Notes: generated by a model not told the origin, from the letters alone. DNA of 16,559 bases from Candidatus Omnitrophota bacterium (GCA_043803685.1 JAZDJU010000104.1:1-16559), one strand, 5' to 3'. Shown: positions 5,100 to 16,363, counted from the first letter of the stretch. A program made the numbers and translations.

Positions 5100-5105
5100 T
5101 TGTCA

Positions 5106-5126
5106 CCCGCCTACCGGCAGGCAGGG
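5106..5126. repeat. Short REP-like imperfect palindrome in the tRNA-Gly leader
   Basis: cccgcctaccggcaggcaggg. Confidence 0.45.
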
Positions 5127-5233: not shown

Positions 5234-5339
5234 TGCGGCCGGAGGGACTTGGCGCCTCCGTTACACTTCGGTCGGCCACCCGCACTTGTGAAACTGACCT
5301 TTGTCAGTTTCACGAACAAGTGCTCCCTTCAAGCCCTCC
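5234..5339 (-). repeat. tRNA-linked structured element, tRNA-Leu copy
   Basis: Ends in an exact copy of the last 18 nt of tRNA-Leu (5234-5251 = 5413-5430). Central hairpin GTGAAACTGAC-AAAG-GTCAGTTTCAC. Alignable with 13253-13358 and 15959-16066. Confidence 0.85.
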
Positions 5340-5412
5340 TACGATCAAGTGCGGTCACCGTACGCGGTACACTCAGAACCGCGACGGTGCCGTACTTTTG
5401 CATAGGCAAAAG

Positions 5413-5494
5413 TGCGGCCGGAGGGACTTGAACCCCCATCCCTTTCGGGACAAGATCCTAAGTCTTGCGCGTCTGCCAGTTTCGCCACGGCCGC
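5413..5494 (-). tRNA. tRNA-Leu (TAG)
   Basis: GCGGCCG/CGGCCGC-A acceptor, anticodon arm CAAGA-CTTAGGA-TCTTG, long variable arm TCCCGAAAGGGA, T loop TTCAAGT. No encoded CCA. Confidence 0.96.
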
Positions 5495-5514
5495 AAACTT
5501 AGTAACAAAAAAAG

Positions 5515-5587
5515 TGCGCCCTGAAGGAGTTGAACCTTCGACCCAGTGATTAAGAGTCACTTGCTCTACCAACTGAGCTAAGGGCGC
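5515..5587 (-). tRNA. tRNA-Lys (CTT)
   Basis: GCGCCCT/AGGGCGC-A acceptor, anticodon arm AGTGA-CTCTTAA-TCACT, T arm GAAGG-TTCAACT-CCTTC. No encoded CCA. Confidence 0.96.
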
Positions 5588-5825
5588 ATGAAATCCGTTT
5601 TAGGCAAGAACGTCCGTGTCCTGATTTCAAAAACTTTTCACGTCGTTGTGCCGACTTTTTGTCTTCGAACGGCTCGTTATGAATCAATTCCAAAGGTCCA
5701 TTTTGCCGTGACCATTGAGATGAGCCGCTATGATGCTGCCGCAAACGCTCTTCAGGAGCTTTGCTTGTTAAACCAACATAATGCTTGCCGTTTTTTAGAC
5801 TCCTTAACACATAAACATAAAACAT
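5550..5825 (-). CDS. Small stand-alone GIY-YIG nuclease family protein (91 aa); 3' end overlaps tRNA-Lys
   Basis: MFYVYVLRS...HYVGLT...ERLRQH...AQRREKFLKSGHGR matches the GIY-YIG Y-Y-G, Arg, His and Glu pattern. AGAGGT precedes the ATG at 5825. Confidence 0.85.
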   Translation of the reverse strand: MFYVYVLRSLKNGKHYVGLTSKAPEERLRQHHSGSSQWSRQNGPLELIHNEPFEDKKSAQRREKFLKSGHGRSCLKRISCALSSVGRASDS

Positions 5826-5831
5826 ATCGAC

Positions 5832-5904
5832 CTCTACCCCCGCCAAAATGCTTGGCGGGTCCGCCACGTTTTATGGCGGAAACTGAGCTAAGGGCGCATG
5901 AAAT
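5832..5904 (-). repeat. Duplicated 5' end of tRNA-Lys interrupted by two 21-nt hairpins
   Basis: 5881-5904 is identical to 5571-5594 (24 bp). The tRNA D-loop continuation GGTAGAG resumes at 5832-5838 after tccgccataaaacgtggcgga and cccgccaagcattttggcggg (minus strand). Confidence 0.85.
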
Positions 5905-6016
5905 GCTTAATTCTATATAAATACAAGACTTACATAATCACAGAGTCGAACGCTCAAGCCCCTTCAGGGAGTTCGGTGTCTAAACGGTGACAGGAATCCA
6001 TCTCAAAGAGAGGCGT

Positions 6017-6044
6017 ATTATACGTATTTAAGAAGGAAATGCAA
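6017..6044 (-). promoter_or_regulatory. Sigma70-type promoter reading toward GIY-YIG/tRNA-Lys/tRNA-Leu
   Basis: Minus strand TTGCAT - 16 nt - TATAAT, followed by ACGCC. Confidence 0.65.
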
Positions 6045-6168
6045 AAAATAAACTGATTAAAATGATTGGGGTAGACGGAGGGTAGTTTTCTGCTTTATTT
6101 GAGGCTTAGAACGGCTTATTTGAGAAAGTGGAGCATAACGAAAACAATGGGAAAACCAGAGAGAGGCA

Positions 6169-6621
6169 TTATCTCATTTTCGCTTCTTCATCTTTTGCTG
6201 GTTTAATTTTAAGTGGCCGCAAGCCTATTTCCTTCCAATAAGCCGCCACTTTTTCTTCGAAATAATCCCCATCTTCAGCAACAACTAACCCGTCCGCTCT
6301 TAACGCTGTAGCAACATAGCATCTATCATCAGGATCAAAGCCAAGAATATCCAACCTGTCTTCTACTGCATTTTCAATATTAGAAGAACGATACTCAACA
6401 TGCCCTGCGTTGTGTATTATTTTAGTGTACCAAGCTTGCAGTAGTGGGCTAGCATTAAACACAGGTCTATATTTTCCTAAGAGTTTTTCTTCGAAATCAA
6501 AAACGATTTGATGATAATCATAAATTAAATCAATTAGCACCAAGGCTTGATGGCATAAATCCCCTTGGCGCAAATCACATGCCGTCTTAAATACATTTTC
6601 ATCAAGAACCCATTTCGCCAT
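6169..6621 (-). CDS. PIN-domain-like protein (putative ribonuclease)
   Basis: N-terminal WVLDENV, central DPDDRCYVATA and VVAEDGDY give the acidic residue pattern of PIN folds. Starts immediately after the ATPase stop codon. Confidence 0.7.
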   Translation of the reverse strand: MAKWVLDENVFKTACDLRQGDLCHQALVLIDLIYDYHQIVFDFEEKLLGKYRPVFNASPLLQAWYTKIIHNAGHVEYRSSNIENAVEDRLDILGFDPDDRCYVATALRADGLVVAEDGDYFEEKVAAYWKEIGLRPLKIKPAKDEEAKMR

Positions 6622-7974
6622 TTAAGCCCGTTCTTTTTGTTTTAATTTTTCGGCTATTAATCGACTATGGACCAATGCTTCCAGATAATCTTCTTGGAAA
6701 AAACCTTCCGGCCAATTTTCAAATTGCCCAAGCTCATTAATATAAATTCTTTTGGGTAATGTGTTTTCAGCTTCGGGGGAAAAGTAATAGATAGCCAAAT
6801 CATCTTTTGTGAAAGTCTTACCTTCAACGACTCGTCGAGCTAATCTTGAAAGTAAATGTTCGCTGTGCGTTTCAACGATAATGCGTCTACCTTGTCCCGC
6901 CAATTCGATAAATAAATCCCCTAAATCCGCTTGCACTTTTGGATGAAGGTGAATTTCCGGTTGTTCTATAAAAAGAGATGAATCTGGCCGAGAATAAAAT
7001 CCCTCTACGATAAGCGGTAAAACCTGAGAAACGCCAAAACCAACATCATTGATAGTTGCATCAATGGCCGTTTTAAGATTTCGAATGATTAATTGAAAAA
7101 AACCTGTCTGCCGCTGCCTACCTAGCGGCTTGAGCTTAATAGAAGAACCGAGCCCGAATTGTTGAATCCAATGATTCACTCTCTTTAAGAGCAGCTTATC
7201 TTTTCTTGACCCTTGGCTTTGAGCCCATAGCACATCTGTCGCATACTCGCCTTTAAGGCCAACATCCTTTCGCAACTCTCCTCCGCTCACATATAAGGTT
7301 TTAGGGTTTTCTCGAAGAGGGCCTATGTAATTGATATTATTAATAAATTCTTCCACGAGCTGTTGAATTACAAAAGCTACTTTTTGCGCTTCCCAAGGGA
7401 TCCTTCGAGCTCTTCCAATCATCGATGGGCTTATGCCGTAAAACTTAAAAGGCGCGACCCTCAAAACATGTTTTAAAAATTCCCCGGATAAACTTTTTCG
7501 TTCATTTCGATACGAGATAGTTGCCTGATATTTTACGCCTCGCTTTAATTTGACGCGCTCTAGATAAATAGATTCATCTAAAAAGCTAATTTCAGCCGAA
7601 TTAAGCTCTGTTCTTTTTTGAAACTTATTGTAAACAAATTGTGTTTTAACTTTACAGTCTCCTTCTTTTAGATCTTTCAAACCCCCAACGAATGGATTTT
7701 TCCCAAAAAATGTAAAATCAACACCAAGCAGTTTCGTCAGATCATGTTTGTAGATAAAGCTCTCGTAGGTAGAGAGCTTAACGTAGGACCCATTCACCAC
7801 TAAAGGGCTGGTAACATCCCGGCTATCCACCGTTTGCTTTAACATTAAGAAGGGCTGCAGCAAACTACTCTTTCCAGAGGAATTTGGCCCTATGAGAATA
7901 GTGATAGGCTTAATCTCTAATTCTTGGGTATCACTAAAACTTTTGAAATTGGTCAATTTAATTTGTTTTAACAT
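6622..7974 (-). CDS. AAA_15/AAA_21-type (ABC-like) ATPase with DUF3696-like C-terminus
   Basis: LTNFKSF, Walker A GPNSSGKS, signature VGFGVSQVLP, Walker B/D-loop FIEQPEIHLHP, ETHSEH, C-terminal GQFENWPEGFF. Confidence 0.85.
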   Translation of the reverse strand: MLKQIKLTNFKSFSDTQELEIKPITILIGPNSSGKSSLLQPFLMLKQTVDSRDVTSPLVVNGSYVKLSTYESFIYKHDLTKLLGVDFTFFGKNPFVGGLKDLKEGDCKVKTQFVYNKFQKRTELNSAEISFLDESIYLERVKLKRGVKYQATISYRNERKSLSGEFLKHVLRVAPFKFYGISPSMIGRARRIPWEAQKVAFVIQQLVEEFINNINYIGPLRENPKTLYVSGGELRKDVGLKGEYATDVLWAQSQGSRKDKLLLKRVNHWIQQFGLGSSIKLKPLGRQRQTGFFQLIIRNLKTAIDATINDVGFGVSQVLPLIVEGFYSRPDSSLFIEQPEIHLHPKVQADLGDLFIELAGQGRRIIVETHSEHLLSRLARRVVEGKTFTKDDLAIYYFSPEAENTLPKRIYINELGQFENWPEGFFQEDYLEALVHSRLIAEKLKQKERA

Positions 7975-8031
7975 AATGAATTAATGCCTCTTGATTATTG
8001 CATGTATTCTTTAGCTGCAAGTTAGACGCAT

Positions 8032-8061
8032 AAAAAAACGGTTCCCCCTTTAAGAGAACCG
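8032..8061 (-). terminator. Intrinsic terminator downstream of the HEPN-like gene
   Basis: Minus strand CGGTTCTCTTAAAGGGGGAACCG followed by 7 T. Confidence 0.7.
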
Positions 8062-8174
8062 CCTTCAATAATTCAAAATTCAAGACGCCCTTCAGGGCTT
8101 TTATTGCTGGGTAGTATAGACCTCCGTTTTATTTGAAGCCAGCTAGAAAGCAAGGCAAGGGAATAAAGACAAAA

Positions 8175-9242
8175 CTAGACTGACGCCCTGCTCTCTTTCA
8201 TTCTCTCAACCTGCTCTTCAATGGCCGCATCGAGTGCACCAGTTGCCTCGCCGATTAACTCCTCGAGAGGTTCGAATTCTTTTTCCAATTGTGCAAAAAA
8301 GGCAAATAATTTCAGCTTGTCCTTTTTCTTCTCTATCGTTTGCGCTCTTTTTTCCAAACTGCTCAAAAAAGAGGCCCTGTAAAGTGGTTTGTATTCCATA
8401 AGTTGCTTCTTAAAATCTTTTATGGGCTTCTTGCCAACAACATCTTGGAAAAACTGGACTCTCTTCAAAGCTTCATCGGGAGAACACTCCTCAGCGCCAC
8501 CCCGACTCAAGTATTCAAGCTGTTCCACTGAATTACTAATTCGTTCAAGCAGATGTTCTTTAAGCCCAACGGCTAAATCTTTTATCCCTATCTCAATGCC
8601 ATTTTTCAGAAAAACACTTACCTGCGAATATTCTCTTTCTCTTTCATTGAGAAAGTAAAAGTTGTTCTTCTTCAATCCCAGCCTTTTCCTAAATTCCTTT
8701 ATTCTGTCAGCCTCACCGCTACTCATTGAGAGCCCCCCCGAGTTAGTCGATAGGGCTACAAATAAATCGCAGATAATTTCATAAAGAATCAGAGTTGAAT
8801 ACTTAAGAGTTTCTTTCCGCACATAGTCACGATGATAAATTTCGTTTCGATAAAGATGAATCGCATTAAGAACAGCGGCAACCTCTTCGGGTATTATTTT
8901 TTCTTTCGCTGAAAGCTCCCTTATTTTTTCTCCGGAAAGAAAGTTCACTTTTTCGTGAAAATAGCTATTTATTCGTTTCTTTTCGCCAGAGCTAATAACC
9001 TTTTCCTTTAAACTAGAATAAAATCTTCGACTTTGCTCATCCCTAAATTCTACGGGAGAAACTTTGAGCATTCTCTCGTACATATCAGCATGACGCATTG
9101 CCGACTTAATAGTCCTGAACATCATAATTTCAACAGCGTTGTCTAACAAAAGCAAAGCCATTCGCAGGTCGGATTCCGCCCCTCTCAGAATCAGGCTTTT
9201 TGAATGCTCTATCTGTTCAACGATTTGAATAATGCGTTTCAT
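8175..9242 (-). CDS. Hypothetical protein with HEPN-like N-terminal domain
   Basis: 355-aa mostly helical ORF with ALLLLDNAVE and an R-x4-H motif (YRNEIYH). Confidence 0.6.
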   Translation of the reverse strand: MKRIIQIVEQIEHSKSLILRGAESDLRMALLLLDNAVEIMMFRTIKSAMRHADMYERMLKVSPVEFRDEQSRRFYSSLKEKVISSGEKKRINSYFHEKVNFLSGEKIRELSAKEKIIPEEVAAVLNAIHLYRNEIYHRDYVRKETLKYSTLILYEIICDLFVALSTNSGGLSMSSGEADRIKEFRKRLGLKKNNFYFLNEREREYSQVSVFLKNGIEIGIKDLAVGLKEHLLERISNSVEQLEYLSRGGAEECSPDEALKRVQFFQDVVGKKPIKDFKKQLMEYKPLYRASFLSSLEKRAQTIEKKKDKLKLFAFFAQLEKEFEPLEELIGEATGALDAAIEEQVERMKESRASV

Positions 9243-9613
9243 AATTGTCTAGAATAATACACCTCTAAGGGCTAAAAAGGTACTCTGAGTCACAGACTCC
9301 TCTAATCGATAGATTCCCACAGTCGATAGGTCGTAGCTCGAAATAAGCAATTTTGCTAATAAAGACCCCCCTACCCTGTAAAAATGAACGTTCTGACAGT
9401 TGTAATCATCGAGAAAAGACGGAGCATCTGACAGACAATCACTTGCTCTCTTTAAAGAAGGCATGAATGGATCGTTCTAAGCTACTGCGGATACAACGGT
9501 TAGAGCGGTGGTGTTTTCTGCGGATAACTGCGGAAGTACTTGCGGTGTCAGATGGGTGTCAAATTTCTCATTAAGTCGCTGAACAGCGTCCGGTTTCCGG
9601 TTTTACCCGCAAG

Positions 9614-9688
9614 AAAGGTGCCGCGCGGCACCTTTTCAAAAAAGGCTCGAGCCCCCTGAACGCAATTTCCTCCATCTGGAGGAAATTG
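9614..9688. other. Two strong palindromes (possible terminators or protein-binding sites)
   Basis: Perfect 22-bp palindrome aaaggtgccgcgcggcaccttt (9614-9635) and caatttcctcca-tc-tggaggaaattg (9663-9688), downstream of the antitoxin gene. Confidence 0.55.
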
Positions 9689-9779
9689 ATAAACAGCCGC
9701 TGGCGAATATTCTGGGTGGTCCTGGTAGAAGTCAACGAAGCGCGTCCGGTTTACGTTGGGGCCGCGCAGCCGGTTCGTG

Positions 9780-10079
9780 TTACTTCTTCGAAACGGCCTT
9801 GAACTGGATCCCGGCGAGATGAAGAAGCAGCAGGATATTCCCGAACCCTGGATTTCCGTTCCCGGAAAGCATTTTATAGAGACTCACCCGGTTGATCTTG
9901 CTTGTCTTCGACATCCGGGTCATGCCTCCGCGCGCCTCGATCACATTCCGGAGCGCCATCAGGAACGCCTTCTTGTCCCCCGCCTCAAGCGCCGCGTTCA
10001 AATACCCCGATGCCGCTTCAGGATCCTTCAGATATTTCATTAAAAATTCATGATGACTTACCGACGGCGGAACTTTCAT
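9780..10079 (-). CDS. Addiction module antidote protein (HigA-like HTH antitoxin, HI1420-like)
   Basis: YLKDPEAASGYLNAALE...FLMALRNVIEARGGMT...NRVSLYKMLSGNGNP; directly downstream of the toxin. Confidence 0.9.
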   Translation of the reverse strand: MKVPPSVSHHEFLMKYLKDPEAASGYLNAALEAGDKKAFLMALRNVIEARGGMTRMSKTSKINRVSLYKMLSGNGNPGFGNILLLLHLAGIQFKAVSKK

Positions 10080-10089
10080 AGTTTGCTCC

Positions 10090-10413
10090 CTATTTTCTCC
10101 TTAAATAATCCATCCAATATGCACGAGCTCTGCGAATGTCACCCTCTTGCGTCGACTTATCGCCGCCGCATAACAGGATCACGAGCGTACGACCGTCTAG
10201 ACCGAAATAAACACGGTAACCAGGACCAAAATGGAACCGGAGTTCCCAGATCCCTGTATCGACAAGCTTTGTATCCCCAAAATTGCCTGTCAACAACCGG
10301 TCACAACGCGTCAGGATCCTTGATTGGATCCGTCTATCGCTTAGAGCAAGCAGCCATTCCTCGAAAGGCTGCTTCCCTTCCGATGAACAGTAATAACGGA
10401 CCTCGCGGATCAC
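10090..10413 (-). CDS. Addiction module killer protein (RelE/ParE/HigB-type toxin, HI1419-like)
   Basis: PFEEWL, GNFGDTK, GIWELRFHFGPGYRVYF, LLCGGDKSTQ. Start inferred at GTG 10413 behind GGGGA. Confidence 0.9.
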   Translation of the reverse strand: MIREVRYYCSSEGKQPFEEWLLALSDRRIQSRILTRCDRLLTGNFGDTKLVDTGIWELRFHFGPGYRVYFGLDGRTLVILLCGGDKSTQEGDIRRARAYWMDYLRRK

Positions 10414-10454
10414 CGGAAGATCCCCGCGTACGGTCGACCGGACCTTCGTTGAAG

Positions 10455-10495
10455 AAAATAGCGCATCATCCCTCACCTGTCAACTATAGTTTACA
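10455..10495 (-). promoter_or_regulatory. Toxin-antitoxin promoter with overlapping palindromic operator
   Basis: Minus strand TTGACA - 17 nt - TATTTT. The near-perfect palindrome tgtcaactatagtttaca (10478-10495) overlaps the -35. Confidence 0.6.
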
Positions 10496-10702
10496 CTGAT
10501 GTTATTATATATTATGAATATAATAATTTATTATTAAGCAATGTCAAGAAAAGACCCTCTTACGCAGAAATAGCTGGCATGGAAAGGTACGCGGAGATGC
10601 TGGGCGGTGAACTGCAACCATGATAACGATAACGGGACGCCGGGAATGACTCGAGGATTGATTTTTGGCGGCGAGGTCGCATAATACGCGTGAGGATCAC
10701 CC

Positions 10703-11554
10703 ATGAAACCTGTAAAGAAGAGCGCCCTTTTCGTCCTGATCACTGTGCTAGTGCTGCTGGGAGCCGCGCTCTGGCTCCTCCCCCGTCTTCCCGGGTTGGA
10801 GCGAGATCTTCTGGAACGGCTGGCGAACCAGGCCACGCGCGAATTTTTCTCCGATTCCGTGCGGATCGAAAAAGTATCCCTCGATCGTCATCTCAAGATC
10901 CATTTCGAGAAGATCACGGGGAAAATGAAAACGCGCCAGAACCCGGTCCCGCTGGAAATAGGATCGCTAAGGTCCGAGGACTCTCTCATTTCTCTCATCA
11001 CCCAAAAACCCGTCCGTTTCACCTTCACAGGAATGCGTCCCCAAGGATCGCCGCGCCCGGGAGTCTCGGGAACTTTTCTGGTGCAGACCGGGACTGTCTG
11101 GCGATTTGAATGTTCCGCCGACTTTGGAAAGACCGACCTGGAGGACTGGCAGTGGCTGGACCCCGGCAATCTTTCCGGAGCCTCGGGCGCCATGAAAGGC
11201 AATCTCGTATTTCGCCAGACCTTCGGGAAGGAACCCGAATTCGAAATAGACCTTGAGGCCCCCCAACCCGGCGGCAACATCCAGGCCAAGTTCTTTGACC
11301 TTTTCCTGCCTTATCTTCCGACCGCTGTCCAAAAGGAAAAGGTCGAAAAAGTTGTCGCGGGCCCACGCTCGGTCCGGTATGACCGGGCTTCTTTAAAGGT
11401 CAGTCTGCCCCAAAGCGACAAGATGAAAATCCTACTCGAGATCTATATTCCGGCTTATAATCTCATACTGAAACTGAACGCGAATCTGAGGACCGACCAA
11501 AAAGGCGGGTTCTCGCAGATCGCACAGATCATGGGACTTATAGAGGTGAAATAA
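10703..11554 (+). CDS. Membrane-anchored beta-rich hypothetical protein, possibly a short YdbH/AsmA-like protein
   Basis: N-terminal hydrophobic helix, alternating beta-strand patterns, and first position in an operon with YnbE-like and YdbL-like genes. The family call rests on context. Confidence 0.6.
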   Translation: MKPVKKSALFVLITVLVLLGAALWLLPRLPGLERDLLERLANQATREFFSDSVRIEKVSLDRHLKIHFEKITGKMKTRQNPVPLEIGSLRSEDSLISLITQKPVRFTFTGMRPQGSPRPGVSGTFLVQTGTVWRFECSADFGKTDLEDWQWLDPGNLSGASGAMKGNLVFRQTFGKEPEFEIDLEAPQPGGNIQAKFFDLFLPYLPTAVQKEKVEKVVAGPRSVRYDRASLKVSLPQSDKMKILLEIYIPAYNLILKLNANLRTDQKGGFSQIAQIMGLIEVK

Positions 11555-11555
11555 G

Positions 11556-11744
11556 ATGAAACTTCTCTCAAGAATGCTCGTACTGCTCCTTCCGGTAATA
11601 GCGATCACCGGTTGCACGGTCAAGGCCGTGGGAGATCCCAACCGTCCCATCACGATCAACGCGAACGTCGTCGTGGACATCCGGGGTCTTAAACAAACCG
11701 CCACGAATATTGAAGATATGGTCGCCCAGGGAGCCACAAAATGA
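11556..11744 (+). CDS. YnbE-like small lipoprotein
   Basis: Lipobox ITGC followed by PITINANVVVDIR; lies upstream of the DUF1318 gene. Confidence 0.7.
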   Translation: MKLLSRMLVLLLPVIAITGCTVKAVGDPNRPITINANVVVDIRGLKQTATNIEDMVAQGATK

Positions 11745-11782
11745 ACCATTCTGTCATGACTTCTATTAAGGAGGGACTCGTT

Positions 11783-12196
11783 ATGAAGCGAATCTACGTT
11801 TTAGGGCTGGCCGTGAGCCTGCTCGTACTGACCTCTGCTTCTTCTTGCTTTGCGACGGACTATGATTACAAAACCCTGACGCCGGAGATCAAGAAAGCCC
11901 TCGCGAACCGGCAATCACGCTATCAGCAACTCCGGCAACTCAAACAGGAAGGCGAGATCGGAGAGAACAATAAGGGCTATGTGGCCAGCCTTAAAGACAA
12001 CGCTTCCGCCACGACATTGACCGACGCCGAGAACCGGGACCGCCGGGTGCTCTACGAAGCTCTTGCGGAACAGAACAAACTTGGAGGCTCGGGACTCCTG
12101 GAAGTACAAAAGGCCTTCGCCGAAGTTCAGAGCGACAAAGCCACAGCGGGAGAGATGGTCCAATCTTCGTCGGGTAGTTGGGAAAAGAAATCCTAG
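11783..12196 (+). CDS. YdbL family (DUF1318) exported protein
   Basis: Signal peptide, KQEGEIGENNKGYV, ENRDRRVLY, C-terminal GSWEKK. Start at MKRIY behind AGGAGG. Confidence 0.85.
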   Translation: MKRIYVLGLAVSLLVLTSASSCFATDYDYKTLTPEIKKALANRQSRYQQLRQLKQEGEIGENNKGYVASLKDNASATTLTDAENRDRRVLYEALAEQNKLGGSGLLEVQKAFAEVQSDKATAGEMVQSSSGSWEKKS

Positions 12197-12267
12197 CAGA
12201 CTCTAGCTCATAGCTTATAGCCCAAAGCTTTTAAAGCTAGAGTCTATGAGCTAAAGGCAAAAGCTTT
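12197..12267. repeat. Degenerate heptamer repeats in opposed arms between convergent genes
   Basis: cagactc tagctca tagctta tagccca aagcttt ... aaagcta gagtcta tgagcta aaggcaa aagcttt. Confidence 0.65.
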
Positions 12268-12281
12268 TTGAAGGCTAATCC

Positions 12282-13136
12282 TCATCTCCCCATTCTATGC
12301 ATCTCGCGGACGCCCCGGGTCATCGTTTGATATTCCACCGCATCCGTGATGAGAGACTTTCCGCCAAGCGTCAGCTTCTGGAATTCCTTTTCGATGGCTT
12401 TGATGCGTTCTTCGGTGATCGGGCGGGATTGATAATAATCATAAAAATAGGGCGTCATCTTGTCTTCGGCATGAAGAAAGCGCTTTTGCACGTCCATCAA
12501 GGCCTGCGGATCATATCCGGCATTCAGGAGATATTTCATCGCCCAGGCGTCACTTAACAAAAGTCTTTCTGCGGGCGTTTTGAAAGAACTCTCGTTATAA
12601 GCCTGCAAAAGCACCAGACCCAGACTCGCCAGCGACCCAAGAGGACCAAACATCGGCCCGACCGCTGAACCGACTTGCACCGCAGTACTGAGCACATCGT
12701 CCCGTTTCGTAAAACGCCGGTCCACGGTCTGCTGCTCCCCGATCTCATGCGCGAGCACCGCCGCGAGTTCCGCTTCATTCTCAAGAAAATTCAGCATCCC
12801 GGTCGTAATATAGACATACCCCCCCGGCGCCGAGGTCGCGTAGATCTTTTCGCTGTAGAGGATCGTGAAACGGTATTGGAGATCATGGCGCTGGGCCTGA
12901 GCGGCAAGAGATTGCCCCAGATCATTAACATATTTCACGACTTTGGGATCGGTGTAGGGATAGAAGGACGCGAGAATCTCGCTGTGGATCGCATCCCCCG
13001 TCCTTTGCTCTTCGGTCAGATGCGAATTTCCGGAGAGCGCCGTGGGACGATCAAATTCCGCTTTCGTCGCGCAGCCGCTCGCCAGAAAAAAACACAACAG
13101 TACAGGAAGGGTCTTCTGCATGAGAGATTTTCTCAT
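12282..13136 (-). CDS. Peptidase M48 family lipoprotein with degenerate active site
   Basis: Lipobox LASGC; APGGYVYITTGML, EAELAAVLAHEIG, AGYDPQA, RP...ERI. HExxH appears as HEIGE. Confidence 0.8.
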   Translation of the reverse strand: MRKSLMQKTLPVLLCFFLASGCATKAEFDRPTALSGNSHLTEEQRTGDAIHSEILASFYPYTDPKVVKYVNDLGQSLAAQAQRHDLQYRFTILYSEKIYATSAPGGYVYITTGMLNFLENEAELAAVLAHEIGEQQTVDRRFTKRDDVLSTAVQVGSAVGPMFGPLGSLASLGLVLLQAYNESSFKTPAERLLLSDAWAMKYLLNAGYDPQALMDVQKRFLHAEDKMTPYFYDYYQSRPITEERIKAIEKEFQKLTLGGKSLITDAVEYQTMTRGVREMHRMGR

Positions 13137-13154
13137 AATGATTCACGATAAAAA

Positions 13155-13244
13155 ACGCCAGGCATGACTTGAACACGCAACCCTCAGCTCCTTCGCCAAA
13201 GGCGAATCGGTCCATCGACGGATTCGCCTCATGAGGAGAAGGCT
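13155..13244 (-). pseudogene. tRNA-Arg-like 3' half with a hairpin insertion at the anticodon loop
   Basis: Minus strand AGCCTTC[46-nt insert]GGAGCTGAGGGTTGC matches tRNA-Arg, then a pairable T arm GCGTG-TTCAAGT-CATGC. Confidence 0.6.
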
Positions 13245-13252
13245 TTAAAAAT

Positions 13253-13358
13253 TGCGCCCGGCAGGAGTCGCCGCCTTCCACTTCGTTTCAGGTCGGGCAC
13301 CCGCCCTAAAAACATGACATACGTCATGTTTTAATTCAGGGCTCCCTTCGACCCCGGC
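13253..13358 (-). repeat. tRNA-linked structured element, tRNA-Arg copy
   Basis: Ends in a 16/18 match to the tRNA-Arg 3' end. Hairpin AAAACATGAC-GTAT-GTCATGTTTT. Shares GAAGGGAGC and GCGGGTG.CCGACC with the Leu copy. Confidence 0.85.
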
Positions 13359-13371
13359 GCAAAAAAAATAG

Positions 13372-13445
13372 TGCGCCCAGCAGGGGTCGAACCTGCAACC
13401 CTCAGCTCCGAAGGCTGATGCTCTATCCAGTTGAGCTATGGGCGC
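13372..13445 (-). tRNA. tRNA-Arg (TCG)
   Basis: GCGCCCA/TGGGCGC-A acceptor, anticodon arm TCAGC-CTTCGGA-GCTGA, T arm GCAGG-TTCGACC-CCTGC. No encoded CCA. Confidence 0.96.
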
Positions 13446-13550
13446 AAAAGCATTTTCATTATTTCAACGACGGCCAGCTGAGATCTATTTAAAAAGCATG
13501 CCCTACACTTTCCGGCTTCGCCTTCAAGTGCGGCTCACTTCGTTCGCTCG

Positions 13551-13624
13551 TCCAGTTGTCCGTCTTGCCTCAGGGCAAGGACGGATCCGTCCCCGCCCAA
13601 AGCGGGGCGGAAGCTACGGGCGCA
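13551..13624 (-). repeat. Duplicated 5' end of tRNA-Arg interrupted by two TCCG...CGGA hairpins
   Basis: Minus strand GCGCCCGTAGCT[53-nt insert, 13559-13611]CAACTGGA versus tRNA GCGCCCATAGCTCAACTGGA. Confidence 0.8.
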
Positions 13625-13694
13625 TAAGATCAAAAAAACGAGAAAGGAGCATATCAGAATTTGCCAACCCAGAATGCTTCGTGAACGCAAACGG

Positions 13695-14741
13695 TCACTT
13701 TTTCAACTTTCCGGTCATGGCATCCACCTCGCCCTGAGGTGAAAAAATGCGCGCGGTCAACTGCACAGGGGGAGTCCCCTTTTCCATCACGGCCAGCGCA
13801 CTCTGGACGAACAACCAGACGTTTTGAAAAACGCTTTCGGGCCCCATCGAACGCAAGCGATCATTCAACGTAAAGATCGCGATATTCGTGATCTTGCCCG
13901 AACCCTCGAACGTCACATACCATTCAGGATCGGACTCGCGAAGAAAAAATTCGTCAAATTGTCCCTCGTCAGGAAAACATTTTTCCGCAATGCTGGGCCC
14001 CGCCACGCCTCCGCCCGCGTTCCTGTTTAAAAACTCTTCACAAGCTCCCTGGTTTTTCATCGGCCAGAGATATTTGATCTTATCAGCTCCCGGCCAGGCA
14101 AATTCCTGCACAAAATAGAAAGGCCCCTCACGGAAAAGGGCCTCCTCCTTTTGGGAGGAAGCGCCTCCCGAAAGCAGCTGCTTGCCTTGCCGAACAAGGG
14201 TTCTGAGTGAAGAATTTCGCCACCACTTTTTTATCGTGCGATTCGGAATAAAACAATACCCCCCCGCGGTCGCCAAAAACAATAAGATCAAAATCCCCGC
14301 AACCACCCGGTGTTTTGTGAAATAGGTCCAGATATCTCTCAGAGGCAAAACAAGCAGCAAGCAAGCCGCAGTAAGCACGAGAAAACCGACCGGTCCGGAA
14401 ATGAAGAACGCCCCGATCACCACGGCCAGAAAAGCGATCAGTCCGAAAACATGCGCCGGCCGGACCTGAGGAACGCGGCCACCACTTTCCTGGATCTTTT
14501 TTCTTCCGAGTTCCACCCGGATAAGGGCCTGGATGATCGAAGAGGGTGGTTTTTCTTTTAGTGGTTCGTGCCGGAAGGCATATTTATCATGGGGATGAAC
14601 ATCTTCCTCAGCATGGACCTTGGGCTCGGGGCGTGTCCGGCCGGACCGATCGAGGGCTGTATCGCACATGACACAAAATTCGCGAAAATAAAAATTGGGT
14701 GCATTACATTTCGGACAAGCCTTCCGAAAAGTATCCTTCAC
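13695..14741 (-). CDS. Hypothetical membrane protein with N-terminal zinc ribbon
   Basis: CPKC-x10-CVMC, about three hydrophobic helices, soluble C-terminal domain. Confidence 0.7.
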   Translation of the reverse strand: MKDTFRKACPKCNAPNFYFREFCVMCDTALDRSGRTRPEPKVHAEEDVHPHDKYAFRHEPLKEKPPSSIIQALIRVELGRKKIQESGGRVPQVRPAHVFGLIAFLAVVIGAFFISGPVGFLVLTAACLLLVLPLRDIWTYFTKHRVVAGILILLFLATAGGYCFIPNRTIKKWWRNSSLRTLVRQGKQLLSGGASSQKEEALFREGPFYFVQEFAWPGADKIKYLWPMKNQGACEEFLNRNAGGGVAGPSIAEKCFPDEGQFDEFFLRESDPEWYVTFEGSGKITNIAIFTLNDRLRSMGPESVFQNVWLFVQSALAVMEKGTPPVQLTARIFSPQGEVDAMTGKLKK

Positions 14742-14791
14742 AGCGCACTTTTCCCTGAAATAGATCCCGATCTCTTGGTCATGGTCTTATA

Positions 14792-15751
14792 TTAACGGCG
14801 ACATAGCACCAAAGCTAAGGCCCCGAGATCTCCCACCGCCCCCCGCAATCGGGACCGAACGATCCGGGTCGTCGAATAGGCCTCGGGCCACGCGTGCCCT
14901 TTCGCGCTCCGGACCATGCTCTGCCAAAAAATTTTATGTGCGGAATTCAAAACGCCACCGCCAATGACGACCTTGGCGGGGTTCAGAATGTTCAGGAGGT
15001 TCGCGATCCCGAGCCCAAGGTAGTAACCCGCTTTCTGATAACTTGCGATCGCAAGCTTGTCTCCTTCGCGCGCGGCCATGCCGACCTGCCGGGCGCTCAC
15101 TGTGCGGCTCTTATCCATAAATTTCCAGAGGCAGGTATTCCCCCGCGTCATCCGTTCGCGCATATCGTTTGCGATCGCGGTCCCGGAAGCGTACGCTTCA
15201 AGACAGCCTTTTTTGCCGCAATTGCATTTACGCCCTTCGGGAACAATGCTCATGTGACCGATCTCGCCGGCCACAAAACCGGAACCCGCGTAAGGCTTTC
15301 CGTGAATCACGATCCCGCCGCCGATCCCCGTGCTGACCGTGATATAAACAAAATTCGCGATCCCTTTCCCCGCGCCAAAAACAAGTTCTGCCAACGCTGC
15401 GGCATTCGCGTCATTAGCCAGGAATACGGGAAGCCCGGTCGCTTTCCCGAGAATATGCTTCAATGGAAGACCCGCCCATCCAGGAAGATTCGGTGAACGT
15501 GGAAGAACACCCTTCCTGTCGTTTACGGCGCCAGGGCACCCTACACCGATTCCCAGAATCTTCCGCGCAGGCATGCGAGCGTCTTGAATGAGAGACTTGA
15601 GATTGGCGGTAAGCTCTTGCAGGCAAGCTTTCGTCTTCGCGCGGGTCCCTGTCGCGATCTCGCGCCGCGCGAGGATCTTCCCTTTTTCAGTTCCGAGCAC
15701 CAGGGAGATCTTGGTGCCACCGATATCGATCCCGATCGCGTATTTCTTCAT
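14792..15751 (-). CDS. ROK family sugar kinase (glucokinase-like)
   Basis: GIDIGGTK, NDANAAALAE, STGIGGG, AGEIGH, CNCGKKGCLE; no N-terminal HTH. Confidence 0.93.
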   Translation of the reverse strand: MKKYAIGIDIGGTKISLVLGTEKGKILARREIATGTRAKTKACLQELTANLKSLIQDARMPARKILGIGVGCPGAVNDRKGVLPRSPNLPGWAGLPLKHILGKATGLPVFLANDANAAALAELVFGAGKGIANFVYITVSTGIGGGIVIHGKPYAGSGFVAGEIGHMSIVPEGRKCNCGKKGCLEAYASGTAIANDMRERMTRGNTCLWKFMDKSRTVSARQVGMAAREGDKLAIASYQKAGYYLGLGIANLLNILNPAKVVIGGGVLNSAHKIFWQSMVRSAKGHAWPEAYSTTRIVRSRLRGAVGDLGALALVLCRR

Positions 15752-15778
15752 GGCGGTAATCTATCAGCTCATAGAAGC

Positions 15779-15806
15779 TTGTGCAATTGAGATAAACTGT
15801 TATAAT
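15779..15806 (+). promoter_or_regulatory. Promoter of tRNA-Phe
   Basis: TTGTGC - 16 nt - TATAAT with extended -10 TG and GC-rich discriminator GACGCCC. Confidence 0.7.
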
Positions 15807-15833
15807 GACGCCCTTCTTGGAATCCTTCTTCGT

Positions 15834-15906
15834 GGGCAGGTAGCTCAGTCGGTAGAGCAAGGGACTGAAAATCCCTGTGTCGGGGGTTCAATTCCCTCCC
15901 TGCCCA
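15834..15906 (+). tRNA. tRNA-Phe (GAA)
   Basis: GGGCAGG/CCTGCCC-A acceptor, anticodon arm AGGGA-CTGAAAA-TCCCT, T arm GGGGG-TTCAATT-CCCTC. No encoded CCA. Confidence 0.96.
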
Positions 15907-16227
15907 ACTTTCTATTCAAAGATTTATAAGAAAGTTGGACTACCCTCTTAATCCCTAAGGAGGGAATTGAAAAGAGCTCTTGTTTGCAAATATGACTTAC
16001 GTCATATTTGTGAGAGCGAGTGGCCGACCGTAGCGTGAGCGAAGGCGCCAATTCCCTCCCTGCCCAACTTTCTATTCAAAGATTTATAAGAAAGTTGGAC
16101 TACCCTCTTAATCCCTAAGGAGGGAATTGAAGAGAGCTCTTGTTTGCAAATATGACTTACGTCATATTTGTGAGAGCGAGTGGCCGACCGTAGCGTGAGC
16201 GAAGGCGCCAATTCCCTCCCTGCCCAA
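15889..16227 (+). repeat. 160-bp tandem repeat (2 units + 19 bp) anchored on the tRNA-Phe 3' end; each unit holds one structured element (15959-16066, 16119-16226)
   Basis: caattccctccctgcccaa at 15889, 16049 and 16209. The units differ at one position that I could see (15972 A vs 16132 G). Confidence 0.95.
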
Positions 16228-16363
16228 GTTTTCCTCTTCTTTTCCTTAATGGTTAACTTGAACTGCACTGATTTCTTCATCAGTTTTCTTCATAATGAGA
16301 GATCAGGTGCTGCCCGATCTTTTTCAAAAAACTCCCAAGAAGAACTGTTGTCTTCTGAAAAAT

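Follow-up and report, generated by a model that had tools for sequence, protein, structure and literature searches.

A structured repeat family behind tRNA genes in Omnitrophota, related by class to the TLRs of Escherichia coli

The tRNA-linked repeats (TLRs) of Escherichia coli are defined by their site behind tRNA or rRNA genes and by a duplicate, 18-19 bp long, of the 3' end of that gene; they have no known function (PMC8144298). Here we describe a family of small elements with this layout, starting from four copies in a stretch of 16,559 nucleotides from Candidatus Omnitrophota bacterium (GCA_043803685.1, JAZDJU010000104.1:1-16559), the whole of which is called the window. The family is real, widespread and structurally constrained, and it is a new family within the known TLR class, with a different core and register. 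We propose, at a probability of roughly one half, that it is a family of protein-less units of 110-250 bp inserted at the T-loop of tRNA and tmRNA genes, non-autonomous and likely moving as folded single-stranded DNA with a target-matched arm and an enzyme from elsewhere.

A first-pass annotation of this DNA had compared the elements only with the repeats at tyrT, a parallel that proved too narrow, as TLRs stand at each of five E. coli K-12 loci that we read (tyrT, the lys and arg clusters, proK and rrnB); no duplicate was found behind glyY in glyVXY. In these TLRs an antisense copy of the T-stem region precedes the hairpins, and the sense copies start at tRNA position 58 or 59. The Omnitrophota elements likewise lie directly behind the tRNA with a copy of the upstream tRNA 3' end, form tandem arrays, are non-coding, place an antisense arm before a cluster of hairpins and carry GNA triloops. 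They differ in that their copy starts at C56, whereas that of E. coli runs from 58/59 to 76, and in having another core, an arm that includes the anti-TTC GAA, and ~40 tRNA types as hosts. The RF00391 (RtT RNA) model recovered six E. coli TLRs (lys, proK) at 47-101 bits as a positive control and at the gathering score matched none of the elements in the window or in nine loci; our covariance model R1 does not match the tyrT TLR. The element is therefore a TLR by class and not a member of RF00391, and the Rfam search of the window placed no family over the elements. The annotation's picture of a structured, non-coding, tRNA-linked family with signs of mobility holds, but not its view that the family lacks a known counterpart. 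No description of the Omnitrophota family or of the TLR antisense arm was found in the literature searched, supplements and subscription papers lying outside the search.

A second group of comparable systems comprises the IS200/IS605 elements such as IS608, their gene-less derivatives and REP/RAYT. They resemble the units in their predicted single-stranded DNA hairpins. IS608 uses DNA guides, located 5' of the structure, to pair with its target, and has a single cut position followed by C and a circular junction model (PMC5934647); the sequence pattern of the units would fit a guide and a single-nucleotide junction of this kind. The element differs in its putative guide, which is ~10 nt long, target-matched in nature and mostly 3' of the junction, in carrying a copy of the target's tail, and in having no linked Y1 transposase.

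Anatomy of the units and the C56 register

Five tRNA genes lie in the window, and copies of the element stand behind Leu(TAG), Arg(TCG) and Phe(GAA), all in tRNA sense, at 5234-5339 (Leu), 13253-13358 (Arg), 15959-16066 and 16119-16226 (both Phe). The four copies and the stems listed for them in the first-pass annotation were all borne out, but the Phe unit is a tandem pair with 159 of 160 bases identical, and because both Phe copies represent one tandem duplication the window holds three independent copies. Counted between the C56 of the gene and that of the copy, the repeat unit spans 179 bp (Leu), 119 bp (Arg) and 160 bp (Phe), in agreement with the 119-179 bp and the non-coding character first described; no open reading frame occurs in the units read. 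The parts are as follows:

5413-5494 (-): tRNA-Leu(TAG) gene, host of copy 1; C56 at 5430
5340-5412 (-): spacer of the Leu unit, twin-hairpin type, in relatives also behind Lys, Gly, Ser and other tRNAs
5328-5339 (-): Leu antisense arm, complementary to T-loop/T-stem positions 54-66 with one base deleted, GAA at its end
5252-5327 (-): Leu core, with purine junction, long hairpin P2 (5282-5323), junction and P3, GGCGC at its end
5234-5251 (-): sense copy of tRNA-Leu positions 56-73 (18/18), C56 at 5251
13372-13445 (-): tRNA-Arg(TCG) gene, host of copy 2; C56 at 13389
13347-13361 (-): Arg antisense arm, preceded by a short T-rich spacer; the fold-back of the tRNA 3' end is shortened here
13271-13346 (-): Arg core, with P2 at 13303-13342 and a P3 variant, GCCCGACC/GGCGG, with inverted pair and GAA triloop
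13253-13270 (-): sense copy of tRNA-Arg positions 56-73 (16/18), C56 at 13270
15834-15906 (+): tRNA-Phe(GAA) gene, host of copies 3 and 4; C56 at 15889
15889-16048 (+): first 160-bp Phe unit, comprising tRNA positions 56-73, spacer (15907-15958), antisense arm (15959-15971) and core (15972-16048)
16049-16208 (+): second 160-bp Phe unit, comprising sense copy (16049-16066; C56 at 16049), spacer, antisense arm (16119-16131) and core (16132-16208)
16209-16226 (+): terminal sense copy of tRNA-Phe positions 56-73 (C56 at 16209), then native flank

The Phe tail copy matches the tRNA at 18/18 positions, as does that of Leu, and P3 of the Leu unit has a bulged C and A and a GTA triloop. The sense strand of the window copies folds with z = -3.1 to -6.4, as RNA or as DNA (200 shuffles); RNA folds of whole units misfold the tRNA part and are uninformative. 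Twin-hairpin spacers like that at 5340-5412 occur in many related loci behind several tRNA types, with or without a core.

Across the family, units of 110-363 bp keep one order: tRNA, spacer, antisense copy of T-loop positions 54-63, three-way-junction core and sense copy of the tRNA tail. The collection comprises 163 motif rows (loci L001-L180), 131 of them with a called tRNA within 320 nt. In 116 of these 131, tRNA positions 60-72 were enough to locate the duplicate, the other 15 being degraded, cut off or interrupted, and its identity with the gene begins exactly at C56 in 108 of the 116. The proposal that the duplicated piece starts at the C of the T-loop TTC thus holds for all four window copies and nearly throughout the family. 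A second count gave 142/152 (372 tRNA contexts, from a sample enriched for element loci), and 135 of 165 copies match at 18/18 over positions 56-73. The duplicate usually ends at or near the mature tRNA 3' end and continues into the spacer in 37/116.

The antisense arm follows its own tRNA closely. At each of positions 57-62 agreement is 95-99%, which at position 59 holds for all four bases; it decays beyond 63 and is at background by 67; positions 54-56 match by construction. Over 57-65 the arm matches at a mean of 7.9 of 9 positions, compared with 5.5 (maximum 5.8) in 5000 shuffles of the tRNA labels, and where gene and copy differ it agrees with the gene at 27 of 33 sites. A near-invariant C56 register, together with an arm that matches at ~95% over 57-62 and decays beyond 63, suggests selection on the arm.

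Three helices make up the fold: P1 (arm with copy), P2 (the long hairpin) and P3, in which GC-C-G-A-CC pairs with GG-C-GC leaving C and A bulged. The defining core is GAA-NN-GAG ... GRRTGGCC(G/T)ACC ... GG(C/A)GC|C. The annotation was right that the copies share a fold whose stems covary but missed P3, and the TGAC-N4-GTCA that it included is a common hairpin tip within the genus and not a defining feature, other lineages having GCGAC..GAGC. One P3 pair is G-C in 93, T-A in 18 and inverted in one of 116 copies. In 75 aligned copies 87% of cells pair, both sides change in 24 of 32 pairs, and the covariation score is 0.43 against 0.17 for shuffled and at most 0.12 for slid alignments; in 42 model-aligned copies 28/32 pairs change on both sides. 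Both sets lean towards structure, the first having been filtered on P1 and the junction motif and the second fitted to the model. P1 covaries because both its arms are copied from the tRNA, and the covariation of P2 and P3 is independent of the tRNA. Three loci (L288 and L303 of G012, L300 of G007) carry an additional double hairpin of ~75 nt within P3, at the position of the bulged C; in G012 the Phe and Arg copies have the same insert, and a similar hairpin lies at 16256-16320 of the window.

Distribution and exchange between tRNA genes

A profile built from the four window copies finds nine copies in the source genome, and R1 recovers the same nine. Seven stand behind tRNAs called by ARAGORN (six genes), one behind a tRNA-Pro gene that ARAGORN missed and one behind a displaced tRNA-Pro 3' half. 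The core pattern matches 19 of 20 genomes of the genus, and a reversed-pattern control has no match in 61 genomes or in 20 genomes. R1 matches 56 of 121 genomes of the phylum, with up to 15 matches per genome, and 40-41 tRNA/tmRNA types serve as hosts. As the annotation had anticipated, the matches are not scattered: 38 of 42 model matches chosen across families follow a called tRNA or tmRNA by no more than 320 nt, and three of the four unlinked ones sit no more than 120 nt from the end of the locus.

Named GTDB records with matches belong mostly to Omnitrophota. Real copies also occur in records labelled Ratteibacteria, Auribacterota, Planctomycetia, Elusimicrobia, Lacunisphaera and Vermiphilus, and a few GC-rich GTDB matches are due to chance. 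A metagenome scan covering 2 of the collection's 64 parts gave 121 matches within the loci it returned, 17 of them real; sixteen of these have a tRNA end within 273 nt, one lies at a contig end, and none contains a gene. Viral contigs gave no match to the strict pattern and 41 to a looser one, none of them real. Other core types fill the same slot, behind tRNA-Leu(TAG) in L555 and L562 (G008, G009) and behind tRNA-Glu(TTC) in G000:C49, with tRNA-tail copies that start at 56 or 57; several families therefore share the layout.

Empty sites, which the annotation had suggested looking for in relatives, were found at Phe, Arg-TCG, Leu-TAG, Lys-CTT and Gly-GCC. Within the genus the site is filled in 5/14 cases at Phe (plus one stump), 3/14 at Arg-TCG and, within ~260 nt of the gene, 8/17 at Leu-TAG, 7/17 at Lys-CTT and 6/16 at Gly-GCC. 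Genome G007 is filled where G004 is empty, with 89% identity in the flank, and at Gly the sequence that follows the duplicate in filled alleles is similar to that found directly after the tRNA in empty ones. Units form tandem arrays, and they are also found behind displaced 3'-half tRNA fragments at island ends, indicating that islands can carry them. A reading of kilobase-sized sequence between two copies as cassette cargo was rejected; the stretches proved to be islands of the usual sort, each closed by the 3' half of a tRNA.

Among 88 genome-tRNA cores, the nearest core belongs to the same tRNA in 22 cases, to the same genome in three and to neither in 63; the closest cross-tRNA pair (Met and Pro) is 98% alike. 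Cores at the same tRNA have a similarity of 0.722 against 0.677 by chance (0/500 permutations). Judged by these sequences, cores appear to be partly vertical and partly crossed between tRNAs and lineages. Some genes and copies differ in whether CCA is encoded, 10 of 153 in one direction and 8 in the other, a pattern that incoming units with a 3' end of their own would produce.

The same differences bear on the least probable of the explanations that we considered, a retro-copied element: reverse transcription of the unit RNA, primed or templated by the tRNA 3' end, would be followed by reinsertion. It would account for a duplicate that is the tRNA 3' end and for the eight copies that have CCA where the gene now lacks it, and the source genome has one reverse transcriptase, but the reverse CCA pattern occurs in 10 cases and the arm covers 54-63 rather than the 3' terminus needed for a primer site. 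Moreover, the enzyme (398 aa, G000:C24:1745-2422, L382, with a small open reading frame upstream) is not linked to units and is presumably of the diversity-generating retroelement type.

DNA-type or RNA-type fold

What is new here is the presence of DNA-type GNA triloops in the terminal hairpins of the family and in the E. coli TLR loops that were read. Among 128 distinct inner segments of P3 there are 64 GNA triloops, 32 other triloops, 8 GNRA loops and 24 other or unresolved loops, and whole cores contain 160 GNA triloops against 85 in shuffled sequence, whereas the spacers have no triloop enrichment (33 GNA, 35 TNC). Loops of E. coli TLRs matched by pattern read CCC-GNA-GGG in 14 of 14 cases, with N being A, T, G or C. 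RNA stems usually show an excess of G-U pairs; G-T and A-C mismatches in P1 and outer P2 number 27 vs 24 and 17 vs 10, no clear G-T excess, although these counts, like those of the loops, overstate certainty because related copies are not independent. Mini-hairpins with GNA or GNNA loops have exceptional stability as DNA and much less as RNA: d(GCGAAGC) and d(GCGAAAGC) melt at 76.5 C, the RNA version r(GCGAAAGC) at 39 C (PMC13037366). The GNA triloops and the lack of a clear G·U excess point to a fold of single-stranded DNA.

The main rival, which we regard as rather unlikely, is a co-transcribed RNA module of the RtT/RrB kind. Such a module would be released from the pre-tRNA at its tRNA-like 3' end by an RNase E-type cut, would serve as a processing aid, decoy or protein sponge, with pairing of the arm toggling between tRNA and copy, and would spread slowly by local duplication and gene conversion. 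The constant tRNA sense, the position close behind the gene in 38/42 model matches, the better folding of the sense strand in 151 of 165 copies (folded as RNA) and a duplicate that mostly ends at or near the mature 3' end all agree with it. So does the behaviour of E. coli TLRs, which are transcribed and processed into discrete RNAs (rtT, RrA/B/F), with RrB binding CsrA and Hfq and the repeat proposed as an RNase E site (PMC8144298). The triloops are GNA rather than GNRA or UNCG, however, orthologous tRNAs are patchily occupied, and units persist behind promoter-less tRNA fragments. In addition, 15 of 104 longer spacers are terminator-like by a crude test, placing the core downstream of the putative terminator, and an RNA role alone leaves unexplained why arms are re-made for ~40 tRNAs. 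The annotation had left a non-autonomous element and a trailer RNA side by side; the DNA element fits better and the trailer RNA less well, neither being proven. Hammerhead and HDV-like ribozyme cores, retron msr-msd and group II domains V/VI were also considered and gave no match by eye or in Rfam.

Enzyme partners, proposed mechanism and significance

A GIY-YIG nuclease gene (PF01541; 91-105 aa) lies in the window at 5550-5904 (-), with tRNA-Lys(CTT) on one side and, upstream, a duplicate of the 5' part of that tRNA, the D-loop of which carries palindromic inserts. A second unit of this kind accompanies tRNA-Gln (G000:C40), and the arrangement is a 5' mirror image of the element layout. Relatives of this gene are within 400 nt of a called tRNA in 19 of the 30 best loci, often inside duplicated tRNA fragments. 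Beside GIY-YIG genes in L326, L328, L332, L334 and L336 stand tRNA-Asn(GTT)-like genes, mostly missed by ARAGORN, whose anticodon loop is apparently interrupted by what we take to be intron-like sequence.

The link of these genes to tRNAs invites a comparison with the Ssn GIY-YIG nucleases and their NTS/SRM repeats, which are likewise small, non-coding single-stranded DNA hairpin repeats; related GIY-YIG genes occur at tRNA genes in element genomes. Ssn-family proteins cut single-stranded DNA beside hairpins, their SRMs are 20-50-nt palindromes flanking the nuclease gene, and the paper on them does not mention tRNA (PMC11893778). The units could then be a by-product of nicking and repair: once a single-strand nuclease, Ssn-like or from the host, has cut tRNA-gene DNA in its folded state, repair synthesis would jump to a neighbouring core and to the opposite strand as templates, making both arms with no guide. 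We consider this improbable. Duplicates that extend into the spacer (37/116) would fit it, as would a core in G010 (L315:3345-3510) that lies inside a duplicated tRNA-Pro 5' half, at the anticodon arm, where there is no antisense T arm and the tRNA sequence folds back locally behind the core. It is at odds with the near-invariant C56 register and the signs of selection on the arm, and GIY-YIG nucleases do not co-occur with the element, being found in 38/56 genomes with it and 36/65 without.

Islands that integrate at tRNA genes (Islander; T-loop/junction sites) also share features with the units, namely a restored tRNA with a displaced 3' fragment, a terminator-like spacer and tandem arrays. 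They exceed 2 kb, whereas the units have 110-363 bp, no integrase, an antisense arm and one core for many tRNAs. Islands are recognised by a 3' tRNA fragment with a terminator, and roughly half of those in Islander have their site in the T-stem region (PMC4383910); the units might on this basis be miniature satellites of tyrosine integrases, minimal attP circles (T-loop/junction site) recombined by the integrases of resident islands. The ~9 tyrosine recombinase genes of the source genome and the units at island ends would suit this explanation, which we hold to be very unlikely. The integrases are not tied to units in that genome save at one island end, identity stops at C56 so that the 7-bp T-loop overlap is not shared, integrases are site-specific whereas one core serves ~40 tRNA types, and the antisense arm is left unexplained.

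The window also holds an AT-rich island (6169-10476) adjoining the Lys-Leu-Gly tRNA cluster, with genes for an AAA ATPase (DUF3696/AbiEii-like) and a small partner, an orphan 355-aa open reading frame and a Gp49/HI1420 toxin-antitoxin-like pair. Pseudo-fragments of tRNA-Arg flank the gene on both sides (13156-13240 and ~13486-13625, -), their anticodon and D loops split by short GC-rich palindromes. A short GC-rich palindrome lies upstream of tRNA-Gly (5103-5126), and this type recurs in tRNA fragments of related loci.

For the non-autonomous DNA element that we prefer, the following course can be envisaged. When the sense strand becomes single-stranded during replication or transcription, the core would fold into its three-way junction with GNA mini-hairpin caps, and the antisense arm would have two alternative partners, the downstream copy (junction GGCGC|C56) and the T-loop of the tRNA gene itself (GTT|C56), at which its GAA would also read TTC. 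By analogy with the use of DNA guides by IS608, a single-strand nick and exchange between two |C56 sites might then lead to excision, reinsertion or tandem amplification, leaving the tRNA intact. A move to a new tRNA would require the arms to be re-copied from the new target by template switching or conversion, perhaps aided by the TTCRANYCC motif common to all T-loops, and tRNA-integrating islands probably ferry units between genomes. In this scheme we infer the nick, the guide role of the arm and the enzyme.

Several findings, besides the processed TLR transcripts of E. coli, weigh against this proposal. Y1 (HUH) transposases are found in 46/56 genomes with the element and 53/65 without it, no clear enrichment (two Y1-negative genomes being inferred from family tallies), and none of the three Y1 genes of the source genome is near a copy. 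GIY-YIG nucleases, as given above, offer no better partner, and several element-rich genomes, albeit incomplete, lack a match to Y1 or to GIY-YIG. No gene-bearing unit was found, and no open reading frame lies inside any unit, in the loci read. Insertion of the IS608 type is not known normally to bring along a copy of the target. The arm helix has no clear compensatory change away from the tRNA sequence. Cores of one genome are no more alike than expected (0.679 vs 0.676; 143/500 permutations), so there is no sign of recent bursts within genomes, and the somewhat greater likeness of same-tRNA copies indicates much vertical descent. Shared cores could stem from gene conversion, and recombination between the 18-bp repeats could have emptied sites that were once filled. 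Raised coverage at tyrT/rttR in a mobilome study was read there as RNA-DNA hybrids and not circles (10.1101/2024.07.17.603846), and does not support circles.

A bolder version of the proposal is possible but doubtful. It would make the units guide-programmed, protein-less single-stranded DNA elements, with one core that a 10-nt antisense arm, reading the T-loop, could direct to any tRNA gene, with insertion at T55|C56 harmless to the tRNA and a nicking enzyme from elsewhere; the E. coli TLRs would be DNA of the same kind and not small RNAs.

TLRs have had no known origin or function for more than 45 years (since 1978). To these the Omnitrophota family adds more than 160 aligned copies at ~40 tRNA types, with a fixed junction, target-matched arms and both filled and empty alleles. 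For E. coli K-12 it provides a testable hypothesis, namely that single-stranded DNA is the form in which TLRs fold and function. Should the arm prove a true guide, the family would be a compact natural case of base-pair-programmed DNA insertion at safe sites.

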